Origin: Nitrospirota bacterium
GTDB lineage: Bacteria > Nitrospirota > UBA9217
Direction: 5' to 3'
Assembly (NCBI GenBank): GCA_963737155.1
Contig: CAVTRN010000002.1
Location: 640,001-704,000 of the forward strand
DNA: 64,000 nt
The position numbers and the translations under genes are program-made. The notes beneath the pieces are model-generated. The model was given only the letters and a program-made list of their open reading frames with translations, did no database searches and was not told the origin of the DNA. Positions 11,037 to 49,354 of the stretch are shown piece by piece (the first letter of the stretch is position 1; the number at the start of each line of letters is the position of its first letter).

Positions 11037-14000
11037 CTATCCCAGCGTGAAAGAGATTGTAGCCCCTTTCCCGATTTCTCCCTCTGCCCAGACACTTCCT
11101 TCGTGGCGGCGAATGATCCGTTCGACAATAGCGAGACCGATTCCCGTTCCCTCAAACTCTTTTTCTGAATGAAGCCGCTGGAAGGGAAGGAACATCTTCT
11201 CGGCATAGGCAGGATCGAACCCGGCGCCGTTGTCTTTGACGAAATAAACGATCTTCGAGTCTTTTTCTGTAGCACCGAATTCGATGCGCGCATTCTCTGT
11301 ATTGGAAGTAAATTTCCAGGCGTTGTCTAACAGGTTTGTAAGCGCTATTTTCATGAGGCTGGGATCAACAACGGCGCGCAAGCCTTCGGCGACGACCACC
11401 TCGACGTTTCTCGCAGGAGCGCTTTCGTGAAGGTTGTTAACAACGGTGAATGCAAGTGTGCTTAAATCATAATCCATCCGCTCGATATTCTGACGTGATA
11501 TGTGCGACAGCCTCAGAAGATCTTCAATAAGCTGACTCATCCGGTCCGAGCCGTTCTTGATGCGGGCAAGATAGTCTCTGCCCTGTGCATCGAGCTTGTC
11601 CGCATAGTCTTCATATACAATTCTGGAGAATCCCGATACAGTCCGAAGGGGCGCTCTCAAATCATGCGACACGGAATAATTGAAGGCATCAAGCTCCTTA
11701 TTCACAGATTCAAGCTCCTGGTTCCTGGCCGCCATGTTTGCGTTCAATTGAGTGACATCCGCTTCGGCTTTCTTTCGCTCGGTGATGTCGAAAAACACCA
11801 CGGCGAAGCGGTTAGGCTCCGTCCGGTAGACGCTGACGTCGTAGCAACGCCCCAAGGGCCCGAACCATTCCTCAAAGCGTGCTGGTTCCCCGGTAAGGGC
11901 CACCTTCCCGTAGCGTTCGAACCAAGTGCGCTCTGCTGTAGGAAACAACTCGAGCGTGGTCCGCCCGACAATATCCGCGGCCTTCAGACCCGTATGATGC
12001 TGGAACGCCGGGTTGACCTCCAAATAGCGGAGATCAATGGGCCTCCCCGTGTCATCCAGGATGATCTCGTTGATCGAGAATCCCTCACTCATCGTATCGA
12101 AGAGGTTCCGGTATCGCGTCTCGCTCGCCCGAAGGGCCGTCTCTGCCGCTTTGCGTTCAGCTCTTATCCGAAGGGTCGTGATCCCGTAAGACAGATCGTC
12201 CGCCAGTTCAGTCAGCAATTTCACCTCTTCCTCGGAGAAGGGATCGGCTTCTTTGGAGTAGATGGTGATCGCCCCGAACACCTTGTCGCCAGACCACAGC
12301 GGGAAGACGATCGAGGATGCATAGCCGCGCCTGTGAGCCTCTTCACGCCAAAGCGTGAAAGCGGGATCGGTCAGCATGTTTCTGCAAACTGCGACTTTGC
12401 CAGTGCGGATGGCCATGCCGGTTGGGCCCTGGCCCCGTTCGGTGTCGGCCCACGTTAGCTGAAGTGTTTCAAGGTAACCTTCCTCGAAGCCTGCGTGTGC
12501 AACGGGACGAACTGATTTTGCATCGTCGTTTTCTGCAAAGCCTATCCAGGCCATGCTGAATCCGCAGTCTTTAACGATAATCGCGCATACATTACTCATG
12601 AATGATGTTTCGTCTTCGGCGCGGCTGACAGCCTTTCTGCCGTTACTGAGGGCTTTTAGTGCCCTATTTGATTTGTGCAGTGCCTCCTCTGCCCGCTTAT
12701 ACTCGCTAATATCATTGAAAAGAATTGCGACATTTTGGTCCTCCGGGTTGCCGACGCGATATGCATAAACATCATACCAGCGATTTAATGCTCTGGCTTC
12801 GTTCACAAAACGCAGCGGCTCACCGGTCAACGCGATTTTCCCATAAATCTCGAACCAATGTGCCTCATGAGCCGGGGCAAGCTCACGCATTAATTTCCCC
12901 GTCGCTTCATGAAGCCCGGTTTGCTTTTCAAACGCTGCGTTGACCTCAAGGAAGCGGTAATCGACGGGCCTGCCCTGCGCGTCAAAAACCATCTTGACGA
13001 TGCAAAAACCTTCGTCCATCGTGTTAAACAAATTGCGATATCGCTCTTCGCTTTCCTGCAGCGCCTCGTCAACGCGGAACTTCGCCAGCGCTACAGCAAG
13101 ATAGTCTGCCAGCTGTTCCCAGAGGCTTATCGTCGAGGAAGTAAACCGTCCCTTTCGTCTATCGTTCAATTGCAGGAGGCCCAATCGTTCTTCTCCAAGT
13201 GTTAGGCCGATCAGGGCAACCGACTCGTATCCCTCGCCGTTGCACCGGTTGCGTGTCCGGGCCTGCCTATCCGCTTCCGTTGTAGTTGCAAGCAGCGCGG
13301 TAGTGCCGTTGGTCCAGAAGTTGCCTCTTTTCGTAAAGAAGGGTTTCGACGGATCGAACCGTCCGCAAATCACGTTGCCGCACATGCACGCCAGAATAGG
13401 ATTACCGGCGCTATCGAGGATAGGATTCCCCTCCTTGTCGCAGGAGCACAATCTGTTCTCCAGCTGAACGAACTCATTCGAAAAGCCTCGTGTCTCAAAA
13501 TAGGGGTAGTCGTGTTTTTCACGAAGCCTAATGCCCACGGCCTCGCAGCCTGAATGTTGCTGGAAAAAAACCGTTGCTGCCCGGACCAGATCCGATGTCC
13601 CCCCGCATTCATTCACGAGACGCAGGAATGCCACGGTTTTCTCCCGCTCCTCCTGTGCCCGTTTCCGTTCGGTGATGTCGTGAGCGATCTTGGATGCGCC
13701 TATCGTCTTTCCGTTTGCATCCCTGATCGCGGAGAACGTCAAGGAAACGGGAATAATCGCGCCGTCCTTCCGCATCCGTACAGTCTCGAAATTCTCTATG
13801 TGTTCGCCCTGCGATAACCGCATCAGAATTTCGGGAACTTCGTCTGTATGCCCGGGAGGGACAAGAAGAGAAATATTTTTGCCAATCATCTCCTCCGCCG
13901 TATAGCCGAAAATTATCTCTGCGCCCACGTTCCACGTCTGAATAACACCATTCAGGTCCTTGCTGATGATTGCATCTTCCGCGCTCGCGACGATGGCCGC

Positions 14001-29741: not shown

Positions 29742-30040
29742 ATGACTTACGTCCTTGTTAAAGAGAGAGCCAAAGATTTTTCGAAGTGAATAGAAATTTA
29801 GAACGCTCGCCAGAAGATTCGCATTGAGGCGGGATCGAAGACAAATATGTTTTACGAAGCGCTAGTGATTGCAATGAAGTCATACTTCTGTGGGAGGTCA
29901 AGGACATGGCCAGAGCAAAGGCTTTCATTGACGCACCACAATTGCGGGATGTCATGGAAAAGACAGGTGTCATCGGAAAATCTGATATTTACTACCTGAA
30001 TGATGACTATGGAGATTTAGCAAAAGCTTCCGGTTTTTGA
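29742..30040 (+). pseudogene. Small ferredoxin-fold 'cyclase'/ABM-like protein pseudogene
   Basis: GGGAG RBS; MTYVLVKERAKDFSK*IEI*NARQKIRIEAG, frameshift, EDKYVLRSASDCNEVILLWEVKDMARAKAFIDAPQLRDVMEKTGVIGKSDIYYL. Confidence 0.55.
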
Positions 30041-30347
30041 TGTCATTAATGCGAGCCGAGGTTTTTTTGTAATTTCGGACAGACATGTTGTAGGGCACTT
30101 CAAACTTATTTTTCTTGGTGCTACGCGACCACATCCTAAGCACGAAGAGATGTGACATGCGGATCAAGGGGGAGGATGCGCAGAGATTTTAAGGGGAGAA
30201 AAATTGCTGTCTCTCACAAGTCGATTGAGTTGTAAACTAGGTGAGAGTAATAGCAGCGATTGCGGGTCGCGGGAGCGTAGATGCCGATGTGAAGTATGGG
30301 TGAGGATGCAGTCTGCCTTATACGCCAAGCTAAAAATAATGGAATTT

Positions 30348-30385
30348 AATAAGGCCCGTCAGTCAATTGACTGACGGGCCTTATT
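30348..30385. terminator. Perfect 38-bp palindrome, probable bidirectional terminator
   Basis: AATAAGGCCCGTCAGTCAATTGACTGACGGGCCTTATT is its own reverse complement; lies downstream of the cytochrome c gene. Confidence 0.7.
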
Positions 30386-30570
30386 GTGTATCGACGATGT
30401 TCCTATGCAAATCACTATTTTGACCCGCTCGAGTCTGTGAGATTAGTTGTACGCAACGCATAACATGCCGAATCGCCATACACGGACCTTAACGCACGGT
30501 TGGTGTGACAGGAAAATTCTGTGAGGGACCAACCGACGTCAACGTTTTTATCAGGACGGCTTACTTCTTA

Positions 30571-31158
30571 TCACTGTTGAGGAGGTAGGGCCATAACGGG
30601 AGCGGGAACCTTATTCGTGATCGGCTTAAGGCTTTTGAGATAAGCAAAAATCGCTTTGAGATCCGCGTCCGTAAGTTTGGCATATTCGTTCCAAGGCATG
30701 GGAGGCAAAATGTCTCGCCCCGATCCCATGAACTTGCCGGTGCGTATAATTTTAATGAATAGTCCAACGTCCCAAGTTCCTGTTCCGGTTTCCGGATCAG
30801 GTGAAAGATTGGAAGTATAGCTTGTACCCCAAGGGCCGACCCACGCTGTTAAACCGTTGTTTGTGATGGCCCCCCATTTATTCGGGCCGAACATATCAGG
30901 TGGAATTGCGGGCAGGTTTTCATCGGATGGATGACCCGAAAGTAGCCGTGTCTCATCCAGGACCGGACCGGCGGGAGTCATTTTCTTCGGGGTATGACAG
31001 TCGTTGCATCCACCCAAAGTCACAAGGTATAGGCCTCTTTTGATGAGCGTTTTATTACCTTGTGCCGCCTTTTGTTCTGCTGTAAACGAGATCTTTGGTG
31101 CGAGGAACAAGCTGAGTAACCCTATCATTAGACATACTGCAAAAATTATCTTTTTCAT
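30571..31158 (-). CDS. Periplasmic monoheme c-type cytochrome
   Basis: Signal peptide; RGLYLV…GCNDCHTP heme motif; NLSPDPETG; PPMPW axial Met; DLKAIFAYLKSL. Confidence 0.88.
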   Translation of the reverse strand: MKKIIFAVCLMIGLLSLFLAPKISFTAEQKAAQGNKTLIKRGLYLVTLGGCNDCHTPKKMTPAGPVLDETRLLSGHPSDENLPAIPPDMFGPNKWGAITNNGLTAWVGPWGTSYTSNLSPDPETGTGTWDVGLFIKIIRTGKFMGSGRDILPPMPWNEYAKLTDADLKAIFAYLKSLKPITNKVPAPVMALPPQQ

Positions 31159-31921
31159 CCCATGATCTCCTTTCGTAAGGTATTTGGCTCTTGGTACGGA
31201 AATATGAGTTGATACATTTTAATATTTCTTAGTACGATCATTGCGGACGAATTGAAGTAAGGCAGATGGTTGTAACAATTGCAAGATTGAGGCTGCTGTG
31301 TGCTTCGTTCCGGGCAAAGGTAGCTCGTAAAAAAATCAATCCTCGACCCAATACTATCGGCTTAAGCTAATTACTGTAATGATAGCAGATACTCTTTAAC
31401 GTTTCAAGGAGGTCTGGATATGCATTCTAGGAATATTGGAATTATGGCTTAGACTACTGTTGGAAATTTCATTGAGTTAAATAAATGTGGGCCAGATTAT
31501 AATGGAATTAGACTCGCAGGGACGATTCTTGACAGTTTCTTTAGCACAGTACACGCTTTTTCGCGCACTCCAAACTAATAAAAAGGGGTGGGTTTGAGTC
31601 GTAGTCCTGCTGTTTTTTACCCTTGAAACCGCCGCGTGAAGCAGTTATACTCTCCCCGATATTTTTACATAAAATGCCATGGGGGAAGCGGACGAGAAAC
31701 GCCTGCCGAGATCCCCGGACGGCTGATCAGAAACCGATTCTGTAATGAATCCCTGGCGACAGGTAATCGAATATCATATAATCAACTCAAAGCTGGCCTC
31801 CTGGTTTCCGATGGCGAGCGAAAGGCCTTGGCCGAAATCAATATTGGGAAAATTCTGAAAGGTATTTGGCAGGAAGAAATAGAAAATTAGATTTAGAAAG
31901 GGGAATTCGCGGTTATTACTT

Positions 31922-32548
31922 ATGATGGATGATATTTTATTTGCAAAAGGGTTGGTTATCGGCTTTCTGATCGCTGTACCCGTGGGACCCATCGGCCTAC
32001 TGTGCTCGCGACGAACATTGACGCACGGCCGGATGACGGGTTTCCTCTCTGGCATGGGCGCATCTACGGCTGACGTACTCTACGGCTTTATCGCGGCTTT
32101 CGGTCTTACTTTCATATCAGACTTTCTCCACAGTAATCAGTTTTGGATAAGGCTTGCAGGCGGGGCGCTTTTGTGTTTCCTCGGCATCAAAACATACATC
32201 GAAAAACCAGAAGGGAAAGCCTATTTACCAGAATTAAATGAAAAAAAACGTATGGCCGTAATATATACATCCACGTTTCTCCTTACGCTTACGAATCCCA
32301 TGACCATTTTTTCCTTGGCTGCGGTTTTTGCCGGGTTCGGGATCTCAGGTACGAGGGGGAGCGTCCTCTCCGCGGGAGTTCTAATCCTGGGAGTGTTTCT
32401 GGGCTCGATGCTTTGGTGGTTGTTTCTTGTCGGGTTGTTTAGTTTATTCAAGAGAAGGTTCAAAAAACGCGAATTGCGATGGATCAACAGAATAGCGGGC
32501 GTGATTATTACGGCAAGCGGTTTGTTTGCGCTCGCCAGTCTGCTCTAA
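31922..32548 (+). CDS. LysE family translocator
   Basis: AVPVGPIG, GASTAD, LTLTNPMTI, GSMLWW, INRIAG; hydrophobic helices. Confidence 0.9.
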   Translation: MMDDILFAKGLVIGFLIAVPVGPIGLLCSRRTLTHGRMTGFLSGMGASTADVLYGFIAAFGLTFISDFLHSNQFWIRLAGGALLCFLGIKTYIEKPEGKAYLPELNEKKRMAVIYTSTFLLTLTNPMTIFSLAAVFAGFGISGTRGSVLSAGVLILGVFLGSMLWWLFLVGLFSLFKRRFKKRELRWINRIAGVIITASGLFALASLL

Positions 32549-32890
32549 ATGTATTGTGTTCCCGTCTGGTTAATATATTCAAAGCACCACGGAACAGGGA
32601 TTAAGAACACCAGCCAAAACTAAAAAGAGGTCAGCCGGGTTTTTTACCTCCGCCGACGAATGAACCTGCTGCGCAAGAAGAAAGATGGTGTCGATGAATC
32701 TGGGAAACAGAAAAACTTGCTCAGGAAGCTTGAGTCTGATTAGAACGTTATTTCGACACAGGAAGCTCTTATTTGCATTATTGAAGTGTGCCACTTTGAT
32801 TTTTCAATAATAATCTCGTTATGAAAAGCCAATTAGAATTTAGAAAATCCCTGCCGTATATTCGTTGAATTTTCTCCCGCGACCTTGCTT

Positions 32891-33964
32891 TTATCTTTTT
32901 CGGAGCAGATATGCATGGGCCGAGAGTCCCGCTCCGAAAGCAACCATGATGCACCATTCTCCTGAAGCAACACCTTGCACCTCAAGCTCTTGCAGCACGA
33001 ACCAGACGGTGGGCGATGACATGTTCCCGTACTTGGAAAGCACAGCACGCGTAGCAGAAACTTGTTCCTCCGACAGTCCGGGCTCGTCTCGGACGGCGTT
33101 TATGATTTTTTCTCCGCCATTGTGGAGGGCCCAGTGTTTGATATCGTTTGGTTTAAGCGAGCGCGGAACGAGGAGGTCGGCAACGACCTGTGCCGTAGCC
33201 TTACGGACCATGTCAGGTAGTCTGACCGAAAGTTGATTGTAAAGCTGTCCGTTTTTGTGGACGTAGCGGATTAATTCGCGCTCTTCCGGCACATACCGCC
33301 TTGCCGAGGCGACAAGCTCATAGCCTTGCGGCCTCGTCCATAGCACGGCGGCAGCAGCACCGTCTCCGAAAAGCGCGTTCGAGAGCAGGAGGCTGAGATC
33401 GTCATCCATCTGGAAAGTAGCGGTACAAATCTCTACGGATACACTTACGATGGCCATACCTTCCCGCTGTTGTAAGAGCGACTCGGAGATTTCGAGGTTG
33501 GGAATCGCCCCGCCACAACCGCTTCCGACCAGGTCGTACGCACGTACGCTGCGCGGGAGGCCAAGCCGCTCGATCAGATATGTTGAAATGCCAGGGCATA
33601 TATAACCCGTACACGTGTTCACGACCAGACCGGCCACCTCACCCTTGCCCAAGCCGGACTTTGCCAGCGCTTTTTCGATCGCCAGCGAAGAAAGTTCCAA
33701 TGACCAGTGCGTAAAACGTGCGATGCGCGCATCGGGGGCCTCATTGACAAGATTTTCAACATCGTCGATGGCGAAGTTACGCCGTTTGATACTCTGATGA
33801 GAGAAGAGCGTGCGGATAACCGACATGCTCAGCGGATTTAACCTCCCCTGATAATGCTTGCGCGCGAGCCGCCCAAGTTCCGCCTGGTCAAGGGTACAAG
33901 GAGGAGTCGCAACAGCCAATGACGCAATATGCGCCCTTGACGCGTTCGCATGCTCATCCATCAT
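32891..33964 (-). CDS. Type III polyketide synthase (chalcone/alkylresorcinol synthase-like)
   Basis: Cys-His-Asn triad: GSGCGG, WALHNGG, YGNMSS; also SVEICT, LFGDGAAA, AFGAG. Confidence 0.92.
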   Translation of the reverse strand: MMDEHANASRAHIASLAVATPPCTLDQAELGRLARKHYQGRLNPLSMSVIRTLFSHQSIKRRNFAIDDVENLVNEAPDARIARFTHWSLELSSLAIEKALAKSGLGKGEVAGLVVNTCTGYICPGISTYLIERLGLPRSVRAYDLVGSGCGGAIPNLEISESLLQQREGMAIVSVSVEICTATFQMDDDLSLLLSNALFGDGAAAAVLWTRPQGYELVASARRYVPEERELIRYVHKNGQLYNQLSVRLPDMVRKATAQVVADLLVPRSLKPNDIKHWALHNGGEKIINAVRDEPGLSEEQVSATRAVLSKYGNMSSPTVWFVLQELEVQGVASGEWCIMVAFGAGLSAHAYLLRKR

Positions 33965-34025
33965 ATCGCATTCCTTTCCATGATTCTGATTGATCAGAGG
34001 GGGAGAGACCTGCCCTTGTATTGCC

Positions 34026-35507
34026 TTATATTCGCATCCCCACTGATTTGAGCCCCCTTCGAATAAAACGCGTATAACGCCAGAGCGGTGGTTTAAGCCT
34101 CAGCCAATGTCCCAAGCGGCTTATATGGGGAAGATAGGAAAATGACAGCGATTCGCCGTTCATGAAGTTCATATGGCCGTTCAGGGATTGTTTCACCCGC
34201 GCCATGATCCAATCAGCGTCAACATCGGGAGAAACATAGAAGAGTGGCGCAAGCATACTGCCGGCAGGAAGGGAAAGCACGCCCTGATTGCGTGCGATGG
34301 TTTCCAGTTCGGTCCCTGGATATATGCGGATGCCGATGTTAAACAAAGCGGCATCCTGAGGCCTTATGAACTTCTCCGCGAAGTGCAGTGTTTCTCGCAC
34401 AGTATCACGTGTTTCACCCGGGCCACCGAGCAGGAAAATCCAAAGGCATGGCAGATGGTTGCGTTTTACGACTTCTGCTGCTGCATGAACGTCTCTCGAG
34501 GTAAAGCCTTTTCGAAGCCTCTTCAGGATCGGGTCGGATGCGCTTTCCACCGTAAGCCCCATTCCCACGAAGCCTGCCTGTTCCATAGCAAAGAGCAGAC
34601 GACTATCGAATGATGCCGGGCTCAGTTCGATGCTCTGAAGGCGCGCGCGGTTCTTTGAGCGAATAAGCGACTCACATACCGCAAGGGCATGGTCGTAGGG
34701 AGCATTGAAAACGTTATCAACGAATTCGATGTCGGTTAACCCCGCTGATGCATAACGAAGCGTGGCCTCGGCCACGCTCGCGGGGTCGCATAGCCGGTAG
34801 TCGTCGCCTTCGATCTTTTGGTAGGTGCAGTAGACACACCGAAATCGGCATCCCTGTTTTGTCTGAAGAGGGATCGTCGACAAATAGGAATGATAGGTCT
34901 TCATATTAACCCACCGACTATAATCAGGCCCTGCACAGGAATGCGCAGGACCATCTGCAGGGGTATTTGCACGGTATTTTCCACCCTCCAGGGATGCGAC
35001 ACCTGGCAGACCCTGCCATGGTTCCTTGCGAGCCAGTTTCGCGACCAAAGGGGGAAATATGGCTTCACCGTCTCCTATTACCGCACAGGAAACGCCTGTT
35101 GCGCGCATGATCTCCTCTGGCATGATCATGAGCGAAGCGCCTCCTAGGACAAGGTACGCATTGTTCGCGAACATGCGGATAGCATCAATGAGAGGGATGA
35201 GATCAACGATAAAATTCCGGGGAGCTACCATATCGATGTTGTCAATGTTCCGAACAGAAAGTCCTATGACATCGAACTTCGCCCTGTCGAGCACGGATTT
35301 AAGAGCACGGAGGGGGTTGGCGGCAAACATGAGGTCGAGAAACGATACCCTGTGTCCGGCCCGTTCAGCGGCTTCCGCGATCATGCAGACACCTGAAGGA
35401 AGGACAGGCACGGGATGGGCATTCCGGTTTGTACTGATGAGGAGAATATTCATGCTGCCGACAGCCGCAGGGTTTCCGCTCGGTGTCTTGTTATCCCCTC
35501 TACTCAT
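34026..35507 (-). CDS. B12-binding radical SAM protein (lipid-biosynthesis type)
   Basis: N-terminal cobalamin-binding Rossmann domain (ILLISTN…PVLPSG…GLSVRNID…GEA); CRFRCVYC motif; FVDNVFN, GGPGET, RIYPGT; overlaps the KS stop. Confidence 0.9.
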   Translation of the reverse strand: MSRGDNKTPSGNPAAVGSMNILLISTNRNAHPVPVLPSGVCMIAEAAERAGHRVSFLDLMFAANPLRALKSVLDRAKFDVIGLSVRNIDNIDMVAPRNFIVDLIPLIDAIRMFANNAYLVLGGASLMIMPEEIMRATGVSCAVIGDGEAIFPPLVAKLARKEPWQGLPGVASLEGGKYRANTPADGPAHSCAGPDYSRWVNMKTYHSYLSTIPLQTKQGCRFRCVYCTYQKIEGDDYRLCDPASVAEATLRYASAGLTDIEFVDNVFNAPYDHALAVCESLIRSKNRARLQSIELSPASFDSRLLFAMEQAGFVGMGLTVESASDPILKRLRKGFTSRDVHAAAEVVKRNHLPCLWIFLLGGPGETRDTVRETLHFAEKFIRPQDAALFNIGIRIYPGTELETIARNQGVLSLPAGSMLAPLFYVSPDVDADWIMARVKQSLNGHMNFMNGESLSFSYLPHISRLGHWLRLKPPLWRYTRFIRRGLKSVGMRI

Positions 35508-36732
35508 GTTTCTGCACGATCAGCACGGCGTTTGTTCCACCGAAGGCGAAAGAATTGGACATAGCCCTTCTCATATCAACTCCCGTTCTGGCTTTTCTGG
35601 GCACATAATCGAGATCGCATAGCGGGTCAGGCACCGCCAACGTTGCAGTAGGCGGTATAATCTGATTCTTAAGCGCGAGAACAGCAGCAACAAGCTCCAC
35701 GGCCCCGGCCGCTCCGAGGAGGTGTCCGTGCATGGACTTCGTGGAGCTGATTGGAATATCATAGGCCCGTGGGCCGAATACGTTCTTGATGGCCCGTGTT
35801 TCCACTTCATCATTGGCTATCGTGGCCGTTCCATGGGCGTTGATATAATCGATATGGCCAGGCCCCATCCTTGCCTCATCCAGGGCCGCCTGCATGGCAG
35901 ACGACTGGCCTACCATGGAGGGTTTCGTGATATGCTCTCCATCCGCGGAAGAACCGTAGCCAACTACCTCTCCGTAAATGCGGGCACCCCGCGTCATCGC
36001 CCGGTCCCATGATTCCAATACCAGGGCAGCAGCTCCCTCACCCAACACGAACCCTGTTCGGTCCTTGGAAAAAGGTCTGCAGGATGTCGATGGGTCTTCT
36101 GCTTCCAAGGCCAATGTCCCTATCGATTCCCAACTCATCATAATGCCGCAGGTAAGGAGCGATTCAGCGCCTCCGGCCAGCATGACATCGGTGTATCCGT
36201 GTTTGATCGATCGGAAGGCTTCTCCGATGGCGACTGATGAAGAGGAACATGCTGTGGAAAAGGTAAGACAGGGGCCTTTCAATCCATATTCGATGGAGAT
36301 GGCGGAAGCAGCAGCATTATTCATCACCATTACGATGGTGAGCGGATGCAGCCGCTTGACCTTGTGCTCAAAAAGCTGGACATAGGAGTCTTCAAGGGTT
36401 TTCGCTCCTCCCATACCTGTCCCAAGATAGACACCGGCACGCCTCTTGTTCTCCTCGGAAAGCTGTATCCCGGCGTCCTTCCAGGCCTGTGAGGCTGCGG
36501 CAAGGGCGAACTGGCTCACTCGGTCCAGCGTGCGGGCAATCTTTTTCGGGAAATGCTCCTCAACAATAAAATCCACCTCGGCGGCGATTCTTGTAGACAA
36601 CCGTTCCGAGAAGCACGAATGCATTCTCTTGATTCCCGATTTACCCGCTGCGATGCTGTCAAAAAATGTTTCACACGAATTCCCCAGCGGGGAAATAATG
36701 CCCATCCCTGTTATGGCTACCCGTCTCCTCAT
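35500..36732 (-). CDS. fabF: Beta-ketoacyl-ACP synthase (FabF-type KS)
   Basis: RRVAITGMG; catalytic STACSSS, NAHGTAT and KSMHGHLLGAAG; SNSFAFGGTN. Confidence 0.9.
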   Translation of the reverse strand: MRRRVAITGMGIISPLGNSCETFFDSIAAGKSGIKRMHSCFSERLSTRIAAEVDFIVEEHFPKKIARTLDRVSQFALAAASQAWKDAGIQLSEENKRRAGVYLGTGMGGAKTLEDSYVQLFEHKVKRLHPLTIVMVMNNAAASAISIEYGLKGPCLTFSTACSSSSVAIGEAFRSIKHGYTDVMLAGGAESLLTCGIMMSWESIGTLALEAEDPSTSCRPFSKDRTGFVLGEGAAALVLESWDRAMTRGARIYGEVVGYGSSADGEHITKPSMVGQSSAMQAALDEARMGPGHIDYINAHGTATIANDEVETRAIKNVFGPRAYDIPISSTKSMHGHLLGAAGAVELVAAVLALKNQIIPPTATLAVPDPLCDLDYVPRKARTGVDMRRAMSNSFAFGGTNAVLIVQKHE

Positions 36733-36748
36733 TTAGACGTCCTGGTGA

Positions 36749-36994
36749 TCATCTTGCCTTTTCTTGCTCGCGGAGCAAGCTTTCAATAACATTGATAATG
36801 TCCTGGATGGAATTAAGCGTAATTTCGCGATCGGGGATTTTAACATTGAATTCCTTTTCCAGGTCAAACAGAAATTCAATCTTGTCCAGCGAGTCGAGGC
36901 CTATGCTCTCGATTGTTGATTCCGGTTGGAGCATCTCGGCGGGAAAATCGTAGTTTTTTTGAAAAAGGCGTTTGACCCTTTCTAAGGTGCTCAC
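36749..36994 (-). CDS. Acyl carrier protein
   Basis: GLDSLD phosphopantetheine site; LEKEFNVKIPD; GTG start after GGGGAG. Confidence 0.9.
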   Translation of the reverse strand: MSTLERVKRLFQKNYDFPAEMLQPESTIESIGLDSLDKIEFLFDLEKEFNVKIPDREITLNSIQDIINVIESLLREQEKAR

Positions 36995-37041
36995 CGGTTT
37001 CTCCCCGTCATGAGAAAATATCAAAAGCAGAGTTCAATGAG

Positions 37042-38286
37042 TCAGAATTTTAGTTGCGTTTTTTTAAGACCCCACATCTCACCGGAATACATGTCGCCGA
37101 ATGCGTCCTCGTAGAGCTTAAGAAGCTCGGCGCGGTATGCCTCGTCGATTGTAACTGCCTTCCTTGCATACGAAGCGCACCAGCCGCAGGTTCCGCAGTC
37201 GGTCGAACGGCAGTTCCTATCCTTGAAGCCGGGGATGAAACCGGCCAATTTCCCGTTGTCGATATGAACGGGATCTCCCTCGAGAGGTGCAAGCATTCCA
37301 CGCCTGATGGTGAGGTCCTTAAGCTTCATGAGCTTCGACAGCCGGACCGTCTGCGGCCTGAACATATACTTCCACTTGTTAAATGGCCCTCTTGAGAGGG
37401 ACGCATCGCTTTTTTCTTTGTAGCCGAAAGGCTGTATGAGATCAAGGAGGTTCCCGTCGTACCGCCCCTCGGAGTAGGCTTTTATTCTTCTCATCAATAC
37501 GGGCGTGGGTGCGCCCCGTTCCAATACCTTGAAAGAGTCATAACCCATATCGAGATAAAGACCCAGATCCTCGGGCCTGATGAACTCGGAGCGCAGGTAC
37601 TGCATCGGATCTTTCAGCTTATCGTAGGAGCATTTCAACACGCACCAGTCTATCATGAATCCCCGTGTCGGGTGCCCCGTCTGCGATGCATGGGAGAGAT
37701 TCACCATATGCTGGCCCGAGAGAGGACAGAAAAGCTGGCAGTTTGCATTTACGATGAGCTGCAGCTCTATATTGAGTTTCCTCCGGAGAGCTGCGAGCAG
37801 TTCGAAGTCGCGGTTGACGCTCAGCGACTCAAGCGTTATGCAGTCCGCTCCGCCTTCCTCCCAGAACCTGGCCTTGACAATGCTGTCGACGCGGGCATAT
37901 ACGCCCACACGGACCTTAAGCCGCGGATGGCGCTTCTTTATTATTGGCAACAAAAAGGGAAGCGATATCGTTACGGCACTCACCCCCGCGCCCTCGATGT
38001 ATTCTAAGAGTGTCTCAATCTTTCTCTGCCCCTGCCTGGTGTACTCGAGGTTGTTCATGCATGCAGGATTGAGGAGATAATTGAATCCTATGCCTTTCGA
38101 TCGAGCCGTCTGGACATGGAGCTCAAACCGTTTGCGCGAGAGCGGCGGCAGCGCAAAGGATGCCCTACCGCCGCCAACCGGGTCGCATGACAGCTTTCCA
38201 AAGACCTCTGTCACCGGATAAACCGAAATGGCATCAAGGAGGCCGTCATCGAAATTGGTCGCGACCGACAGTCCGAATTTCTTCAT
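37042..38286 (-). CDS. Peptidase U32-family Fe-S protein (candidate O2-independent hydroxylase)
   Basis: Start MKKFGLSVATNFD just after the methyltransferase stop; FNYLLN, NRDF, LIVNANC-x3-C-x27-C-x3-C, FIRPEDL, FKVLER; extra C-terminal C-x4-C-x2-C-x2-C. Confidence 0.85.
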   Translation of the reverse strand: MKKFGLSVATNFDDGLLDAISVYPVTEVFGKLSCDPVGGGRASFALPPLSRKRFELHVQTARSKGIGFNYLLNPACMNNLEYTRQGQRKIETLLEYIEGAGVSAVTISLPFLLPIIKKRHPRLKVRVGVYARVDSIVKARFWEEGGADCITLESLSVNRDFELLAALRRKLNIELQLIVNANCQLFCPLSGQHMVNLSHASQTGHPTRGFMIDWCVLKCSYDKLKDPMQYLRSEFIRPEDLGLYLDMGYDSFKVLERGAPTPVLMRRIKAYSEGRYDGNLLDLIQPFGYKEKSDASLSRGPFNKWKYMFRPQTVRLSKLMKLKDLTIRRGMLAPLEGDPVHIDNGKLAGFIPGFKDRNCRSTDCGTCGWCASYARKAVTIDEAYRAELLKLYEDAFGDMYSGEMWGLKKTQLKF

Positions 38287-38287
38287 C

Positions 38288-39016
38288 TCAGCCCTTCCTC
38301 CCGGAGAGCACCATAAGCCAGAACGGTTCTGCTGCAACTTTGCAGCCGGTAAGACCCGCTTTTCCGGCCAGGGTCTCAAGCTCGGGAACCGTGAATGACC
38401 GGAGAACCGACAATGGCCCATCATGCCAGGTAATCCTATTCCTTGTAAAGAGCCTAGTAAGCATTGTGATGAGCGCCCATGCCACCCAGCTCCGTCTGAG
38501 ATCCAGGACAATATAACCGATGGCAGCTACTCTGCCTATTTCCTGCAGCAGCCTGAGCGTGGCCTCCTCATCGAAGTGGTGAAGAGTTTTGGCGCACAAT
38601 ACAACGTCGAAGCTTTCATTTTCGAACGGAAGCGAAAAGCAGTCGGCGACGGCAACAGTAATTTCAGGGTACCCCACAGTGAAAGCAGCTGCTTCGCGGA
38701 CTGCGATGGGGTTGTTATCAACGGCGGTTACGTTGATCCGAAGTCCCCTCTTGCGGGCCCATCTGACAATGGCGGCAGGAATATCGGCTGAGCCAGTCGC
38801 GATGTCCAGCACTCTGATCGATCTGGCTAGTGTTCCCGCATCAGCCTGTAAAAGGGACGAAAAGTGCTTGAGCGTCGTGCGATAATCGCCTAGAAAACGG
38901 TTGACTTTTCTTATGTCCGCAAGGCTTCCGGTATATTCGTGCAGGTTATCATTCTCAATGGGGAGGTCTATCAGCTCCGGGCTTCGCCTCCGCTCAGGCA
39001 ACAACGACATTATCAT
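38288..39016 (-). CDS. SAM-dependent methyltransferase of the type III PKS-associated family
   Basis: RRRSPELID…VNRFLG, VLDIATGSADIP, LHHF, DLRRS, HDGPLSV-RSFT-EL motifs. Confidence 0.85.
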   Translation of the reverse strand: MIMSLLPERRRSPELIDLPIENDNLHEYTGSLADIRKVNRFLGDYRTTLKHFSSLLQADAGTLARSIRVLDIATGSADIPAAIVRWARKRGLRINVTAVDNNPIAVREAAAFTVGYPEITVAVADCFSLPFENESFDVVLCAKTLHHFDEEATLRLLQEIGRVAAIGYIVLDLRRSWVAWALITMLTRLFTRNRITWHDGPLSVLRSFTVPELETLAGKAGLTGCKVAAEPFWLMVLSGRKG

Positions 39017-39081
39017 CGAAAGATCTTTCTCTGGAGGGTAGGCGATGCGGGATTGGTTCCTTGAGAATCATAATAGTACTA

Positions 39082-39090
39082 ATTATAGCA
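39082..39090 (-). promoter_or_regulatory. Extended -10 promoter element for the PKS operon
   Basis: TGCTATAAT (TGn-TATAAT) on the minus strand about 65 bp upstream of the first gene. Confidence 0.4.
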
Positions 39091-39788
39091 TGTACAAATT
39101 GTGATTTTTTCAGATCAAGGGGGACCACATACTTTTTTATCCGCATGACAATCAGCTAAGATTTCCTCATGCTGATTCTTATGCAAGCAGCTTTCAAAAT
39201 GGTGATTCGGCGGCTGAAATTGGGTTTCCTGTCCGAGAAGACGTGTTTGACTGAACAGGCGAATCCTGCGGTAATTAAAAAAGCCATAGTTCTAGCACTT
39301 GGCGTCATATCCCGCAGGTAAGCCAATCCGGTGAAATCGCAACGAACCTGAGTTCTTTATGGACAGATGCTGCGGATTTGGGGTTAACGTGTATCAGGTG
39401 CAAGGAAAGGTGACTGAGATAATTCCCCCGGCTCAAGGATCTGTGCTGTTTGTCACAAGAAGACGGCAAGGATAGAATTTTCATCTGCTTTCGGTATGGT
39501 ATACTGAAAATTAGTTGGCGCTGCTCGACTCTTGCAAAAAAGTACAACTACATTTCCAAGAGTGAGCATGCTGGAAACTAGGCAAGAACGTCAGGAAGAA
39601 CGGCGTGATTCGACGATTGTCTGAATAATAATAACCGATTAACGAACAGGATGTTGCTTCAAGGGGAAACGCAGATGTGCGAAACCACGCGCTTAACCGC
39701 ATATAGCAAGTTAATGGGATATATAAAAGTGTTTATATGCGCCACGCGGTCGGGTTATATGAATTTAAAAACAGCAGAGGGGAACGAT

Positions 39789-40739
39789 ATGAAACGGATG
39801 AAAGCAATGCCAACGATTGTTGTGATATTTGTTGCTGCTTTTTCTCTTTTACCAGCGTTTGCTGGAGCTGCCAATAATTCAGATCTGCTCGTTGATGCGG
39901 GGTGGCTTGCCGGCAAGCCTAACGTGGTTATAGTGGATGTAAGGGCCAGCGATGCGTACCTGAAGGTGCACATTGCCGGTGCGATAAACATAGACGTGAA
40001 TGACCTCCAGACCAAACCCGATGCTATCATGTTTCCTGTCGCCCGGGAGGAGAAGATACTCGGGGAGAAAGGCCTTGATATAAACAGCAATGTTGTTTTG
40101 TACGGTGCCGGGAGGGAAATGGCATATCTGGAATTCTGGATGTTTGATTATCTGGGGATGACCAAGATCCATATCTTAAACGGCGGTCTAGAAGAATGGA
40201 AGGGGGAGCTTTCAACCGAAGAGGTAAAACTTCCGTCTACCGTATTCAAAGCAAAACCCGATCCGTCAAGATATGCCACAACTACCTATGTTCGCGCGCA
40301 CCTCAGGAAGCCGGATGTCGTACTTCTTGACGCCCGTACTGCCGGTGAATATCAGGGGACGGATGTGAGGTCATTACGGGGCGGGCATATCCCCGGAGCT
40401 ATAAACTTGAATTATGCGGAGAACTTCCAGAACGACACGACGAATCTCAAATCCATTGAAGAATTAAAAAAGATGTATGCAAAAATAGACCCCAAAAAGG
40501 AGGTAGTTACTTATTGCCAAACTGGAACCAGGGCGGCAAATTCCTATTTTGTACTGCGAGAACTGGGTTTTCCGAAGGTCAGGGTCTATGATGCATCATG
40601 GATTGAATGGGGAAGTAACTCTAGCCTTCCCGCCGATGATGTGAGCTACTTTAATTTTGTTTCCGTCTTGAACTCAATTAAAGAACTGCAAAGGGAAATA
40701 ACGGATCTCGAAGAAAAGCAGGCTGCGGGCGTGAAATAA
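39789..40739 (+). CDS. Exported tandem-rhodanese sulfurtransferase
   Basis: Signal peptide (…AFSLLPAFAGA); two rhodanese domains (VDVR…HIAGA; LDAR…GHIPGA); active loop YCQTGTRA; YDASWIEW. Confidence 0.88.
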   Translation: MKRMKAMPTIVVIFVAAFSLLPAFAGAANNSDLLVDAGWLAGKPNVVIVDVRASDAYLKVHIAGAINIDVNDLQTKPDAIMFPVAREEKILGEKGLDINSNVVLYGAGREMAYLEFWMFDYLGMTKIHILNGGLEEWKGELSTEEVKLPSTVFKAKPDPSRYATTTYVRAHLRKPDVVLLDARTAGEYQGTDVRSLRGGHIPGAINLNYAENFQNDTTNLKSIEELKKMYAKIDPKKEVVTYCQTGTRAANSYFVLRELGFPKVRVYDASWIEWGSNSSLPADDVSYFNFVSVLNSIKELQREITDLEEKQAAGVK

Positions 40740-40812
40740 CAAAAAATGAAGCGGCTTGAATATTAGAAATTACGTCTCTCCCCGAGGATGGGGTTATCGT
40801 ACCTGTCGTTAA

Positions 40813-41616
40813 TTAATTTTTGCCTCCTGCAAGTTCTCCTTGTGTGGTTTTACGTGCGATGAGAAAGAGCCTTTTAAATGGATAGAGAATTCGCCCGTCG
40901 CTTTGAGGATGGTACTGTTCTTGAGAGGCAGTTAATACTGTCTGCTCGAATTCCCCCCTAGAATCATCGGTCGGCAGGCTCTCGAGAAAAGGTTTCATCG
41001 CGGTGCTCTTATACCACTCAACAAGATTTTGGTGGGATTTCAAAATGTGATAGTAAGTCGTTTCCCAAAGGGTGATGTCCTTCGTTAAGGAAACGAGCTG
41101 CTCATAATAATATGTGGCATTATGGTGCGTTATCAGCCCGTCGCAACCAGAGGTGAACGTACTCCATTTACTGTTCTGGGCAACTTTCAATATGATTTTG
41201 TATAAAGGCGATTCGTAATTAGCAGGCACCTGGATCGCCAGTATCCCGTTGTTCCTTACTATTTGGAACAATCGCGAAATTAACCTCGGGTGATCAGAGA
41301 TCCATTGTATAGCCGCATTGGAAAAAACAATATCATATGCCCGGTCAGTTTCCACTCTTGAAGCATCCCCTATCACCCATGTTTGACCAGGATAATCCGT
41401 GCGCGCTCGTTCTATCATCTTAACGGATTTGTCGAGGCCGACGATGTCGGCGTAAGGCCATCGCTTGCGCAGGACCTGGGTACTGTTTCCTGGGCCGCAG
41501 CCTATATCGATAATAGATTCGGGATCGGCCAGGGGAATTCGTAACACGAGGTCTATGGATGGCTGCGTTCTTTCTTGCTCAAACTGCAGGTACTGTTCTG
41601 GATCCCAATTGTGCAT
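40813..41616 (-). CDS. tam: Trans-aconitate 2-methyltransferase-like protein
   Basis: WDPEQYLQFEQERTQP, IDIGCGPGNST, SNAAIQW, LAIQVP, YPFKRLF. Confidence 0.85.
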   Translation of the reverse strand: MHNWDPEQYLQFEQERTQPSIDLVLRIPLADPESIIDIGCGPGNSTQVLRKRWPYADIVGLDKSVKMIERARTDYPGQTWVIGDASRVETDRAYDIVFSNAAIQWISDHPRLISRLFQIVRNNGILAIQVPANYESPLYKIILKVAQNSKWSTFTSGCDGLITHHNATYYYEQLVSLTKDITLWETTYYHILKSHQNLVEWYKSTAMKPFLESLPTDDSRGEFEQTVLTASQEQYHPQSDGRILYPFKRLFLIARKTTQGELAGGKN

Positions 41617-42078
41617 TGCAACCCTTCCGTTATTCCAGACAGCTCTGTCAATTGTACTGCAATCGCTGCAATCAAAAAAGTGATGAACACTGCAGGGCAA
41701 ACAGCATCGAAGGCGCCGGTTCTATAAAACAGGGGACTTGAAAATATTTTGTGATTAAATTGAGATTTTAAGCTCAGGGGATATATGTGTCAAATAATAT
41801 CTTCCAGAGAAGACCTCCGCCAATCGCCGGCTGAGGGAAAGGGTACCGCGGAGGAGGTGGACGGTTCTCGGTGTTCGGTCCGGGAGGTTCAAATTATAAA
41901 GCAATTGCGGAAACTGATCTTCCCAGGGATGGTGCCTAGGATTATGGTCGCTGTTGTTTCATGCATGACTCGATTGGGCAAGCATTGCGCAAACAATTCA
42001 AAATTTATGCTGCAATTTCACGAAGATTATGCTGTCGCGGGCTATAGGATGTGCTTTCCCGCCGTACACTGCCTCTTA

Positions 42079-47983: not shown

Positions 47984-49354
47984 ATGAAACTCGAAAAAGG
48001 ATTCTATTGGGAACGGCAAGCCGAAGCAGAAAAGGCGTGTGTTGACCTTCTCGACGACTATAAGCGGAAGAACTCCGTTCTTGGGCGTTTTGAGCAGAAA
48101 CTCATCCTCCGAACCAGCTCTCGACTGCTTGATTGGGTGGACCACATTCTTGTCCAGGACACAAAACGAATGAGGGAAAAACTTAACGACGTTGGATTCG
48201 TGAAACACACGGGCACAAGGTATGAGGCAATGTACCATCCCGGCGCGCTCTTGCCAAGGATAGTTCTCGCTGGACAGAACTCCGGTATGGACCAGGGTGT
48301 GGCCTTGCGAGTGGAAAGCATCAGCGATTTTCTGCAAGCAAACGGGTTCCGCGCCGGGATCGAGGGCGGACCTTTCGGCCCCTATCGGCGGGCCGTAGTA
48401 GGCATGGAGGGGGGGGTCGGCATGATGGTTGTGGAACGCAGAGGGACCATGGATTATGACCCTGCTTCCCTATCCGATGGCCATCTCCGGAACTATCTGG
48501 AAGGAGTGGAGGCGTGGCAAAACAGGCCGCGGCACGGCGAGACCGAAGACGACACCTTCAGGGGAATCTTTCGGATCGCGGATCGCCTTGTTTATCAAGT
48601 GGGAGCGGACATGGCTGCCTCCATCGTCTGCCAATGCGAGCGGGTTTACTGGCTATCCCGAAACTTCGCGGCCCGAATGCAGCGAGCACGCCACGACACG
48701 CTCGGATTGGGATGGGCTAATCACGACCATCACACGTTTCGCAGTTCGCGACGAAATTTTTTCAGGCTTGTGGACCTCTTCACCAGACTGGGGTTCCAAA
48801 ACCGGGAGCGGTTTTATGCCGGCGCGGAAGCGGGCTGGGGTGCCCAGATTATGGAAAACGTAGCGGCCGGGCTCGTTCTTTTTCTCGATGTAGATCTGGT
48901 GCCCAACGAAGTGGCTACGGAGTTTTCCAAGGAGGAACTCAAGGATTTAGACCAACTCAGCACGGTGGGATTGTGGTGCGCTCTCCATGGCGACTCCATC
49001 CTCCACGCCGGGATGCACCATTTTGCCGCCCGGTTCGATTTTGACCGCCTGATCGCGGACCTTGCCCGCTTGGGCGTCGGATACATGGCACCGTTCAGCA
49101 ACTTCCCTTATTTCAAACAGGCATTCAGCGTTGCCGAGCGATGGGAGGTAGATTCGGCGAGAGTGGAGAAGCTAACCAGGGAAAAATCCATCACCAATGA
49201 ACAGGGCGAGCTGTTCCTCAATCAGGGAGCAGTTGGCAGCCACCTCGAGAACATCGAACGGAGGGAAGGATATAAAGGATTCAACAGAAAGAATGTGAGC
49301 GCCATTATCCGGCAGACAGACCCGAGAAGGAACATGGCAACGGACGGCAATTGA
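47984..49354 (+). CDS. Hypothetical VOC-fold protein; candidate 2-oxoacid dioxygenase (HglS/HPPD-like)
   Basis: GAGGA RBS; motifs NHDHHTFRS, GMHHFA, KQAFS, HLENIER, GFNRKNVSAI; last gene of the lysine cluster. The gene is well supported; the function is inferred. Confidence 0.6.
   Translation: MKLEKGFYWERQAEAEKACVDLLDDYKRKNSVLGRFEQKLILRTSSRLLDWVDHILVQDTKRMREKLNDVGFVKHTGTRYEAMYHPGALLPRIVLAGQNSGMDQGVALRVESISDFLQANGFRAGIEGGPFGPYRRAVVGMEGGVGMMVVERRGTMDYDPASLSDGHLRNYLEGVEAWQNRPRHGETEDDTFRGIFRIADRLVYQVGADMAASIVCQCERVYWLSRNFAARMQRARHDTLGLGWANHDHHTFRSSRRNFFRLVDLFTRLGFQNRERFYAGAEAGWGAQIMENVAAGLVLFLDVDLVPNEVATEFSKEELKDLDQLSTVGLWCALHGDSILHAGMHHFAARFDFDRLIADLARLGVGYMAPFSNFPYFKQAFSVAERWEVDSARVEKLTREKSITNEQGELFLNQGAVGSHLENIERREGYKGFNRKNVSAIIRQTDPRRNMATDGN

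Follow-up and report, generated by a model that had tools for sequence, protein, structure and literature searches.

A six-gene type III polyketide synthase operon with a divergent U32-family protein in a soil Nitrospirota bacterium: a candidate cluster for a tailored phenolic lipid

What would a protein of the U32 superfamily, whose known roles are limited to O2-independent hydroxylation, either within ubiquinone synthesis or on RNA bases, do in an operon that ends with a type III polyketide synthase (PKS3)? The question is raised by six genes in a 64,000-nucleotide stretch of the genome of a soil Nitrospirota bacterium (assembly GCA_963737155.1, contig CAVTRN010000002.1, positions 640,001 to 704,000), referred to here as the window. 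The six co-directional open reading frames (ORFs) lie head to tail on the minus strand, from position 39016 to position 32891, and encode in this order a class I S-adenosylmethionine (SAM)-dependent methyltransferase (MT), a divergent U32-like protein, an acyl carrier protein (ACP), a FabF-type β-ketoacyl-ACP synthase II (KS), a B12-binding radical SAM protein (rSAM) and PKS3. A type III PKS phenolic-lipid cluster is of a known kind; the present composition, with a U32-like protein where a flavoprotein is usual, is new and leads to a well-supported and testable hypothesis by which U32 chemistry would extend to polyketides. By analogy with characterized systems, the operon is given about an even chance of being a modular cluster for a tailored type III-PKS phenolic lipid, in which the U32-like protein would hydroxylate the ring without O2 and the MT would methylate it.

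The MT gene (38288–39016) encodes 242 residues that match the Pfam families Methyltransf_25/11 and Ubie_methyltran, with the glycine-rich SAM loop LDIATGSAD. The automatic ORF call for the U32-like gene started at a TTG at 38511 and gave a 489-residue protein running into the MT gene. The U32-like homologues begin at MKKFGLSVATNF, and thus the true start is ATG 38286, 1 nt past the MT stop codon, so that the gene (37042–38286) encodes a putative iron-sulfur (Fe-S) enzyme of 414 residues. After 17 nt follows the 91-residue ACP (36749–37024), which has a TTG start, an LDSL phosphopantetheine site and matches to PF00550 (PP-binding, 43 bits) and, below cut-off, TIGR00517 (44 bits). A 16-nt gap separates it from the 410-residue KS (35500–36732), which scores 497.1 bits against TIGR03150 fabF (cut-off 493.75) and has an intact Cys-His-His set in the motifs TACSSS, AHGTAT and MHGHLLG. 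The KS gene overlaps by 8 nt the rSAM gene (34026–35507), whose 493-residue product combines PF02310 and PF04055 and carries the CX3CX2C motif as CRFRCVYC. The last gene, 61 nt further on, encodes the 357-residue PKS3 (32891–33964), with Chal_sti_synt_N/C and FAE1_CUT1_RppA matches and the Cys-His-Asn triad in GSGCGG, HNGG and YGNMSS. PKS3 matches 104 Protein Data Bank (PDB) sequences at E ≤ 1e-10, the best being stilbene/chalcone synthases (2.6e-30), with PKS18 also among them. A preliminary description of the window had reported six tightly spaced genes with intact motifs, and these are borne out by the translations and by junctions that range from the 8-nt overlap to the 61-nt gap.

Judged by sequence profiles and a predicted fold, the U32-like protein is a true but remote member of the U32 superfamily, an assignment that follows from its Pfam match, its fold match and a profile–profile comparison. 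The gene is the sole PF01136 match in the host genome and its score is marginal (25.7 bits against a cut-off of 22.4), while more distant paralogues in the clade score 44–51 bits. The nearest solved structure by sequence is PDB 5d88 (E 3.6e-7, residues 55–182), that of MK0906, an archaeal U32 'peptidase' of unknown function. An AlphaFold2 model computed from a 45-sequence alignment (predicted local distance difference test 87.9, predicted template-modelling score 0.89) has the same entry as its best PDB fold match, with E 2.2e-11 and a template-modelling score of 0.75 on the target; the next matches are generic TIM barrels. MK0906, the best match among solved structures in both sequence and fold, is only 254 residues long; the match covers the barrel (residues ~55–182 by sequence) and does not reach the Cys-rich half of the window protein. 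Single-sequence hhalign gave 13.9% against E. coli UbiU and 0.3% against UbiV. As such comparisons were too weak, a family-versus-family comparison was used: the 45-member clade aligned with a profile of UbiU, UbiV and 12 canonical Nitrospirota U32 proteins at 98.1% and E 7.4e-14 over 245 columns, spanning residues 6–274 of the U32-like protein and 4–291 of UbiU. The U32 family comprises 12 subfamilies, most of them uncharacterised (PMC10990095). At E ≤ 0.001 more than 1,200 proteins belong to the U32-like family, and a cultured Geomonas is among their sources, with a homologue of 62% identity.

Eight cysteines are invariant in the 45 sequences (C76, C183, C187, C215, C219, C364, C367 and C370), and C359 is present in at least 90%. 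The [4Fe-4S] ligands of U32 proteins sit in a CX6CX15CX3/4C motif (PMC6747719). Four cysteines of the clade occupy the same barrel region with the spacing CX3CX27CX3C; the profile alignment places C183 in the same column as the UbiU cluster ligand C169, and C215 in that of the fourth canonical Cys. A C-terminal CX4CX2CX2C motif (C359, C364, C367 and C370) has no counterpart among the aligned canonical U32 proteins. From these patterns it is reasonable to infer a putative Fe-S cluster site at the canonical place and a second metal site. Transfer of function from UbiU/UbiV to the U32-like protein is by inference across a relationship that is only remote.

The neighbourhood of the U32-like gene was compared across 15 related loci from genomes and 80 from metagenomes, in which the six operon proteins were placed by tblastn; neighbour counts refer to the 32 loci (full loci) with at least 5 kb on either side of the U32-like gene. 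Of the 32, 24 have an MT gene no more than 400 bp from the U32-like gene, 17 have PKS3 within 5 kb, 16 rSAM within 5 kb, 14 KS within 2 kb and eight ACP within 600 bp; PKS3 or KS is near in 23. In a FastTree of 87 U32-like sequences, a quick tree in which long branches were flagged, the loci with an adjacent PKS form five separate, well-supported groups (40–88% identity). Other genomes and metagenomes contain the six-gene block as well, which speaks for more than a chance grouping. The preliminary description had named a lack of U32–PKS conservation in other genomes as a refutation; the check does not refute it, since the PKS3 counts and the five clades show the U32-like gene conserved with the PKS. 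Flanking-gene tblastn queries (GltB, LysE, rhodanese and a second MT) had no match in any related locus, and a cytochrome c query had a single match among them, in L009 at 25% identity. By these results the six-gene block moves as a unit.

Several gene orders are found. The order MT-U32-ACP-KS-rSAM-PKS3 is the Nitrospirota type, with a U32 identity of 79–88%. At ~60–65% U32 identity the order is rSAM...MT-U32-PKS3, with a second, BchE-like rSAM on the opposite strand; PKS3-U32 occurs at ~50%, and PKS3-U32-MT and U32-MT-PKS3 at ~40%. Contiguous MT-U32-PKS3 is present in ten loci (L045, L046, L048, L049, L051, L052, L054, L055, L065 and L075). Among 301 sampled Nitrospirota genomes the U32-like gene was detected in 26, including 8 of 63 in the host family and 3 of 14 in the host genus, and a PKS3 orthologue in 43, including 37 of 63 in the host family. 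All eight other U32-positive genomes of the host family also carry PKS3, on the same contig and ~1.6–3.3 kb apart in five of them. In the clade at 60–65% identity a conserved protein of ~300 residues, with no Pfam or NCBIfam match, lies between rSAM and MT (L048, L049, L052, L054 and L088). DUF2147 genes occur in ten loci, and genes for alpha/beta hydrolases, OmpA-like proteins and pirins are also found repeatedly in the vicinity. DUF2147, which stands 3' of PKS3 in several relatives, is not found in the window, where its two tblastn matches are overlaps with the PKS3 end.

Relatives that lack one of the partners indicate how the cluster is assembled. From host-family members without the U32-like gene, 16 PKS3 loci were excised. 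rSAM directly adjoins PKS3 in all 16, and neither MT nor U32 was found in any of them. ACP-KS is present in three, in divergent orientation, and the other 13 have rSAM-PKS3 without ACP or KS. By the gene content of these relatives, rSAM-PKS3 is the constant core, MT-U32 is accessory and ACP-KS is optional. Synteny shows that rSAM and the type III PKS work together. Among loci with the U32-like gene, ACP-KS is absent from L027 and L030, and in the nearest relatives L002, L017 and L018 (86–87% U32 identity) the KS is cut to a remnant of 60–95 residues while ACP and the other genes are kept. In L013 rSAM is absent and PKS3 is split, and in L007 rSAM is split; some of the gene breaks in L002, L017, L018, L013 and L007 may be long-read assembly errors. 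The ACP and KS had been proposed as a dedicated part of the pathway: both are present and intact in the window, but the pair is missing or reduced in some related loci. In 7 of the 16 relatives (L111-L114, L119, L121 and L123) rSAM-PKS3 directly adjoins a heme-copper oxidase operon that comprises COX1, COX3, an SCO1-like gene and a COX2 gene whose product has a cytochrome c domain; in 8 of the 16 a DUF5714/MbdU-like metal-binding protein follows rSAM-PKS3, and then rubredoxin and rubrerythrin. The core product may be linked to respiration or oxygen stress; these are genomes of close kin and not independent cases.

In the Nitrospirota family f3 the U32-like gene was found in 9 of 12 sampled genomes and PKS3, searched with the window PKS3 as query, in none of the 12. 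The f3 order (L125-L128) is [rSAM]-MT-U32-(151-residue Polyketide_cyc/SRPBCC protein)-KS, and the MT-U32 pair thus stays in polyketide or lipid company. The SRPBCC protein may act as a cyclase; alternatively, by analogy with the SCP2-type UbiT that serves UbiU/UbiV, it may help by binding lipid. The f3 genomes also have a second U32-like paralogue (35–39% identity), ~5 kb from a KS-KS-ACP set and beside PadR and aldehyde:ferredoxin oxidoreductase genes. In Holophagales/Acidobacteriota (L008, L010, L016, L026, L032 and L034) the U32-like gene is nested in the Nitrospirota clade, which suggests a recent transfer. A 472-residue Holophagales protein with a MauG-like di-heme C-terminus overlaps the end of the U32-like gene. 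In L016 a DAO/Rieske flavoprotein gene is divergent from the U32-like gene, and a cluster of PKS3, an ICMT methyltransferase and an AMP-ligase (acyl-AMP ligase) lies 6.4 kb from it.

MT and U32 form a tightly coupled accessory pair. The MT has 25 invariant columns across 21 homologues and scores 147 bits against NCBIfam NF004851, below the cut-off of 243. An assignment as MpqE, the methyl-plastoquinone MT, was rejected: that model gives 20 bits on the MT, and its best match in the genome is elsewhere and below cut-off. Complex prediction for the U32-like protein with the MT gave a score of 0.00 (mark 0.32), which speaks neither for nor against binding. The best NCBIfam match of the rSAM is TIGR04072, 'lipid biosynthesis B12-binding/radical SAM' (293.3 bits), followed by BzaD (166 bits). 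TIGR04072 is likewise the best family for related rSAMs (316 and 334 bits), but all these scores are below its cut-off of 360, and no published pairing of this family with a type III PKS came to light. Beyond the lipid family, the nearest named relatives of the rSAM are C-methylases such as BzaD and tryptophan 2-C-methyltransferase.

The closest published parallels are the srsABC, pkqABC and hidABC operons, a widespread type in which a type III PKS is combined with an MT and a flavin adenine dinucleotide (FAD)-dependent oxidoreductase (PMC10896814; PMC9927152). Their products are hydroxylated, methylated alkylresorcinols or alkylquinones (PMC10896814; PMC9927152); hierridin B, for example, is a 5-alkylresorcinol with a C4 hydroxylation and an O-methylation (PMC10896814). 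hidABC and 58 of 96 planctomycetal PKS3 genes, those of the mtr-fdo-t3pks operons, have the order MT-FAD oxidoreductase-PKS (PMC10896814). The present operon resembles these in having PKS3 with an adjacent MT and one more tailoring enzyme, and the ten contiguous related loci have MT-X-PKS3 in the same order. It differs in that the middle gene encodes a U32-like Fe-S protein and not a flavoprotein, that B12-rSAM is the constant partner of the PKS, and that ACP and KS are present in the window. The window MT is of class I, whereas the PKS3-adjacent MT of L016 is ICMT-type. The preliminary description knew of no characterised example of the combination; likewise, the open-access and bioRxiv literature yielded neither a characterised cluster with this composition nor a paper that connects a type III PKS with a U32 protein or a B12-rSAM.

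Three hydroxylations on the ring of a lipid-tailed phenol depend on the U32 proteins UbiU/UbiV and draw their oxygen from prephenate, and the U32 proteins TrhP and RlhA are linked to RNA hydroxylation (PMC10990095; PMC6747719). The window protein shares with UbiU/UbiV the U32 superfamily and cysteines in the same barrel region; its presumed substrate is also a lipid-tailed phenolic ring, and in the UbiU/UbiV pathway methylation steps likewise follow the hydroxylations. Differences are that UbiU and UbiV form a heterodimer whereas the host has a single U32 gene, that the window protein has the CX3CX27CX3C spacing and the extra C-terminal CX4CX2CX2C, and that the UbiU/UbiV substrate is a prenylated 4-hydroxybenzoate derivative while that of the window protein is presumed to be polyketide-derived. 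By Pfam, none of the six operon proteins matches an SCP2 family, to which UbiT belongs, whereas sister loci carry the SRPBCC/Polyketide_cyc protein. In B. subtilis, yrrM-yrrN-yrrO encodes an O-methyltransferase and two U32 proteins, and the MT acts on the new hydroxyl (PMC6599085). This operon (TrmR with TrhP2/TrhP1) is alike in combining an MT and U32 in one operon; it differs in its tRNA U34 substrate, its two U32 paralogues and its catechol-O-MT-type MT, whereas the window pair is embedded in PKS, ACP and KS genes. The MT-U32 pair fits the hydroxylate-then-methylate logic of yrrMNO, and such parallels are analogies, not tests.

Taken together with these parallels, the phenolic-lipid reading would proceed as follows. 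The PKS would extend an acyl starter by condensation with malonyl units and form a ring of the resorcinol or pyrone type; where present, ACP and the FabF-type KS would supply or extend the ACP-bound acyl starter. The rSAM would most likely methylate the PKS product at an unactivated carbon. The preliminary description had the rSAM modify the acyl starter, which is not favoured here because rSAM stays with the PKS also in loci that lack ACP and KS. The U32-like Fe-S protein would introduce a hydroxyl group into the aromatic ring independently of O2, by the kind of reaction proposed for UbiU/UbiV, TrhP and RlhA, thereby doing the job of the FAD-dependent oxidoreductase of the srs, pkq and hid operons. 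The class I MT, translationally coupled to it, would then methylate the ring, most simply at the new hydroxyl. The predicted product is a methoxy-alkylresorcinol or an alkyl-hydroquinone/quinone of the hierridin or polyketide-quinone type.

The absence of a flavin monooxygenase, noted in the preliminary description, is confirmed for the operon and the window. No flavin enzyme was found by Pfam among the six operon genes; PF01494 (FAD_binding_3) has no match in the window, and its eight weak-to-moderate matches in the genome all lie elsewhere. A flank census was made of ORFs of at least 200 residues within 7 kb of the U32-like gene, with seven long ORFs excluded. Among the 25 most frequent Pfam families of the 126 flanking ORFs from 27 related loci, the rarest of which have two members each, there is no flavin monooxygenase, and thus none that recurs. 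A one-for-one exchange of U32 for an FAD monooxygenase in the host's own family was considered and rejected, as the U32-less loci hold no flavin enzyme among their conserved neighbours. The idea that U32 stands in place of the flavin hydroxylase therefore holds in part: the MT-U32-PKS3 order of ten loci matches MT-FAD oxidoreductase-PKS3, but since the U32-less relatives are simply rSAM-PKS3, MT-U32 is an add-on module and not a gene-for-gene swap in the host lineage.

A number of observations weigh against hydroxylation of a polyketide ring by the U32-like protein. Its similarity to UbiU in single-sequence comparison is remote and to UbiV null, and its Cys pattern is non-canonical, with two of four positions aligned and C187 and C219 displaced. 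According to PMC10990095, no U32 protein has been shown to have hydroxylase activity in vitro. Nine of the 32 full loci have no PKS3 or KS nearby: two are split-cluster Nitrospirota (L003 and L006), two are Holophagales and five are distant paralogues (≤ 51% identity). U32-positive genomes of the families f2, f3 and f18 have no match to the window PKS3 query, and the Holophagales U32-like genes, at 77–80% identity, have other genes as neighbours and no MT. The host also has heme-copper oxidases, and hence no obvious need to avoid O2.

The rival that most deserves weighing, though rather unlikely in our estimate, is that the U32-like protein performs other Fe-S redox chemistry on the same polyketide, such as reductive dehydroxylation or dearomatisation, dehydration, desaturation, ring closure or electron transfer to the B12-rSAM, and that the MT methylates a PKS-made hydroxyl or a carbon. 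The synteny evidence is the same for this rival as for hydroxylation, and the presence of rSAM within 5 kb in half of the full loci fits a redox-partner role. The clade lies at a great distance from the hydroxylase-linked U32 families, and the extra C-terminal Cys cluster together with the rearranged four-Cys site suggests that its chemistry may have diverged. Nonetheless, the U32 members with a genetic phenotype are all tied to O2-independent hydroxylation (PMC10990095, PMC6599085, PMC6747719), and operons known to hydroxylate share both the pairing of a hydroxylase with an MT and the order MT-X-PKS3 (PMC10896814). The assignment of MT-U32 to RNA modification, like TrhP/TrmR or RlhA, with the PKS alongside by chance or co-transfer, is very unlikely. 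It would account for the U32-like genes that lack PKS3 or KS in the nine full loci, it agrees with the lack of any other U32 gene in the host genome, and yrrM-yrrN-yrrO offers a precedent of an MT-U32 operon acting on tRNA U34 (PMC6599085). However, the pair adjoins PKS3, or a cyclase and KS, in many independent orders and clades and in the window sits inside the operon, with a gap of 17 nt before ACP; its distribution is patchy in the host family and in the phylum (8/63 and 26/301), unlike that of a translation factor, and the MT is a UbiE-like class I enzyme and not of YrrM's catechol-O-MT type.

It is also improbable, if somewhat less so than an RNA-directed role, that the product is not aromatic at all. 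ACP, KS and rSAM would then make a modified fatty acid or membrane lipid, for instance a methyl-branched one, with PKS3 as a FabH-like primer or terminator and MT-U32 modifying the lipid. The name of the best rSAM family (293 bits), the score of the KS above the FabF equivalog cut-off, and the KS that follows MT-U32 in PKS-less loci agree with such a lipid. The rSAM nevertheless scores below the TIGR04072 cut-off of 360, the PKS has chalcone/stilbene-synthase domains and the triad, and rSAM-PKS3 occurs without ACP or KS in 13 of the 16 U32-less relatives, and in the nearest relatives the KS is a remnant; even in the KS-type loci a Polyketide_cyc/SRPBCC gene stands between U32 and KS.

If hydroxylation of a phenolic lipid is retained as the preferred reading, a bolder joint proposal can be built on it, which we put forward tentatively and rate well short of an even chance. 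The U32-like protein would be the first U32 O2-independent (prephenate-type) polyketide hydroxylase, a single polypeptide with two Fe-S sites that does the work of the UbiU-UbiV heterodimer. It would have repeatedly displaced the FAD-dependent oxidoreductase in MT-X-PKS3 operons of Nitrospirota, Thermodesulfobacteriota-like, Myxococcota-like and other lineages. With the B12-rSAM acting as a C-methylase, the operon would build a ubiquinone-like, fully substituted methoxy/methyl alkyl-(hydro)quinone, an O2-independent 'polyketide quinone' that supplements menaquinone as electron carrier. For a choice between a protective lipid and a redox carrier there are hints only, by analogy: the cox-operon neighbours of the core pair, and the role published for polyketide quinones in hypoxic mycobacteria (as cited in PMC10896814).

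The host genome (4.84 Mb in two contigs) has as its nearest public relatives metagenome-assembled genomes labelled Nitrospirota. It carries two COX1 (heme-copper oxidase) genes, with scores of 491 and 203 bits, by which a strictly anaerobic host is ruled out. The word 'anaerobic' is thus unsuited to the host, and the 'anaerobic' pathway is better called, in milder terms, O2-independent tailoring in an organism that respires oxygen as well. Two futalosine-pathway MqnA-type genes are present, and the host presumably therefore makes menaquinone.

If the hydroxylation reading is true, U32 chemistry extends to natural-product and lipid tailoring, and the locus shows how phenolic lipids or quinones of the hierridin/polyketide-quinone type can be made where O2 is scarce. 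With so small and portable an operon, the mechanism and the oxygen donor could then be followed simply in a heterologous host, through the mass of a single lipid. Experiments are made feasible by the cultured Geomonas among the family members.

On its upstream side the operon adjoins a divergent rhodanese gene, and on its downstream side a convergent LysE gene. A sigma-70-like promoter match lies ~50 nt upstream of the MT start (39067–39096, minus strand); it is a consensus match only (9 of 12 positions) and is weak, as the region as a whole has 12 such sites against 6.5 ± 2.6 in shuffles. Terminator predictions (7 against 7.2 expected) are uninformative. No riboswitch or other Rfam family matched positions 30000–42000 at E ≤ 0.1, and no tRNA was detected in the window. 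Just upstream of the operon are the gene of a double-rhodanese protein (39651–40739, plus strand) and that of a second class I methyltransferase of 295 residues (40813–41700, minus strand); both, matching nothing in related loci, probably lie outside the operon. At 47984–49354 on the plus strand is a 456-residue ORF without a Pfam match, and at 11037–16832 on the minus strand an ORF of 1931 residues. A Holin-X-like membrane protein of 178 residues (PF07332; 42079–42615, minus strand) is encoded 3 kb upstream of the operon. In Holophagales a 540-residue protein with the same PF07332-type C-terminal domain is encoded directly upstream of the U32-like gene (L008:3468-5090), possibly by coincidence.

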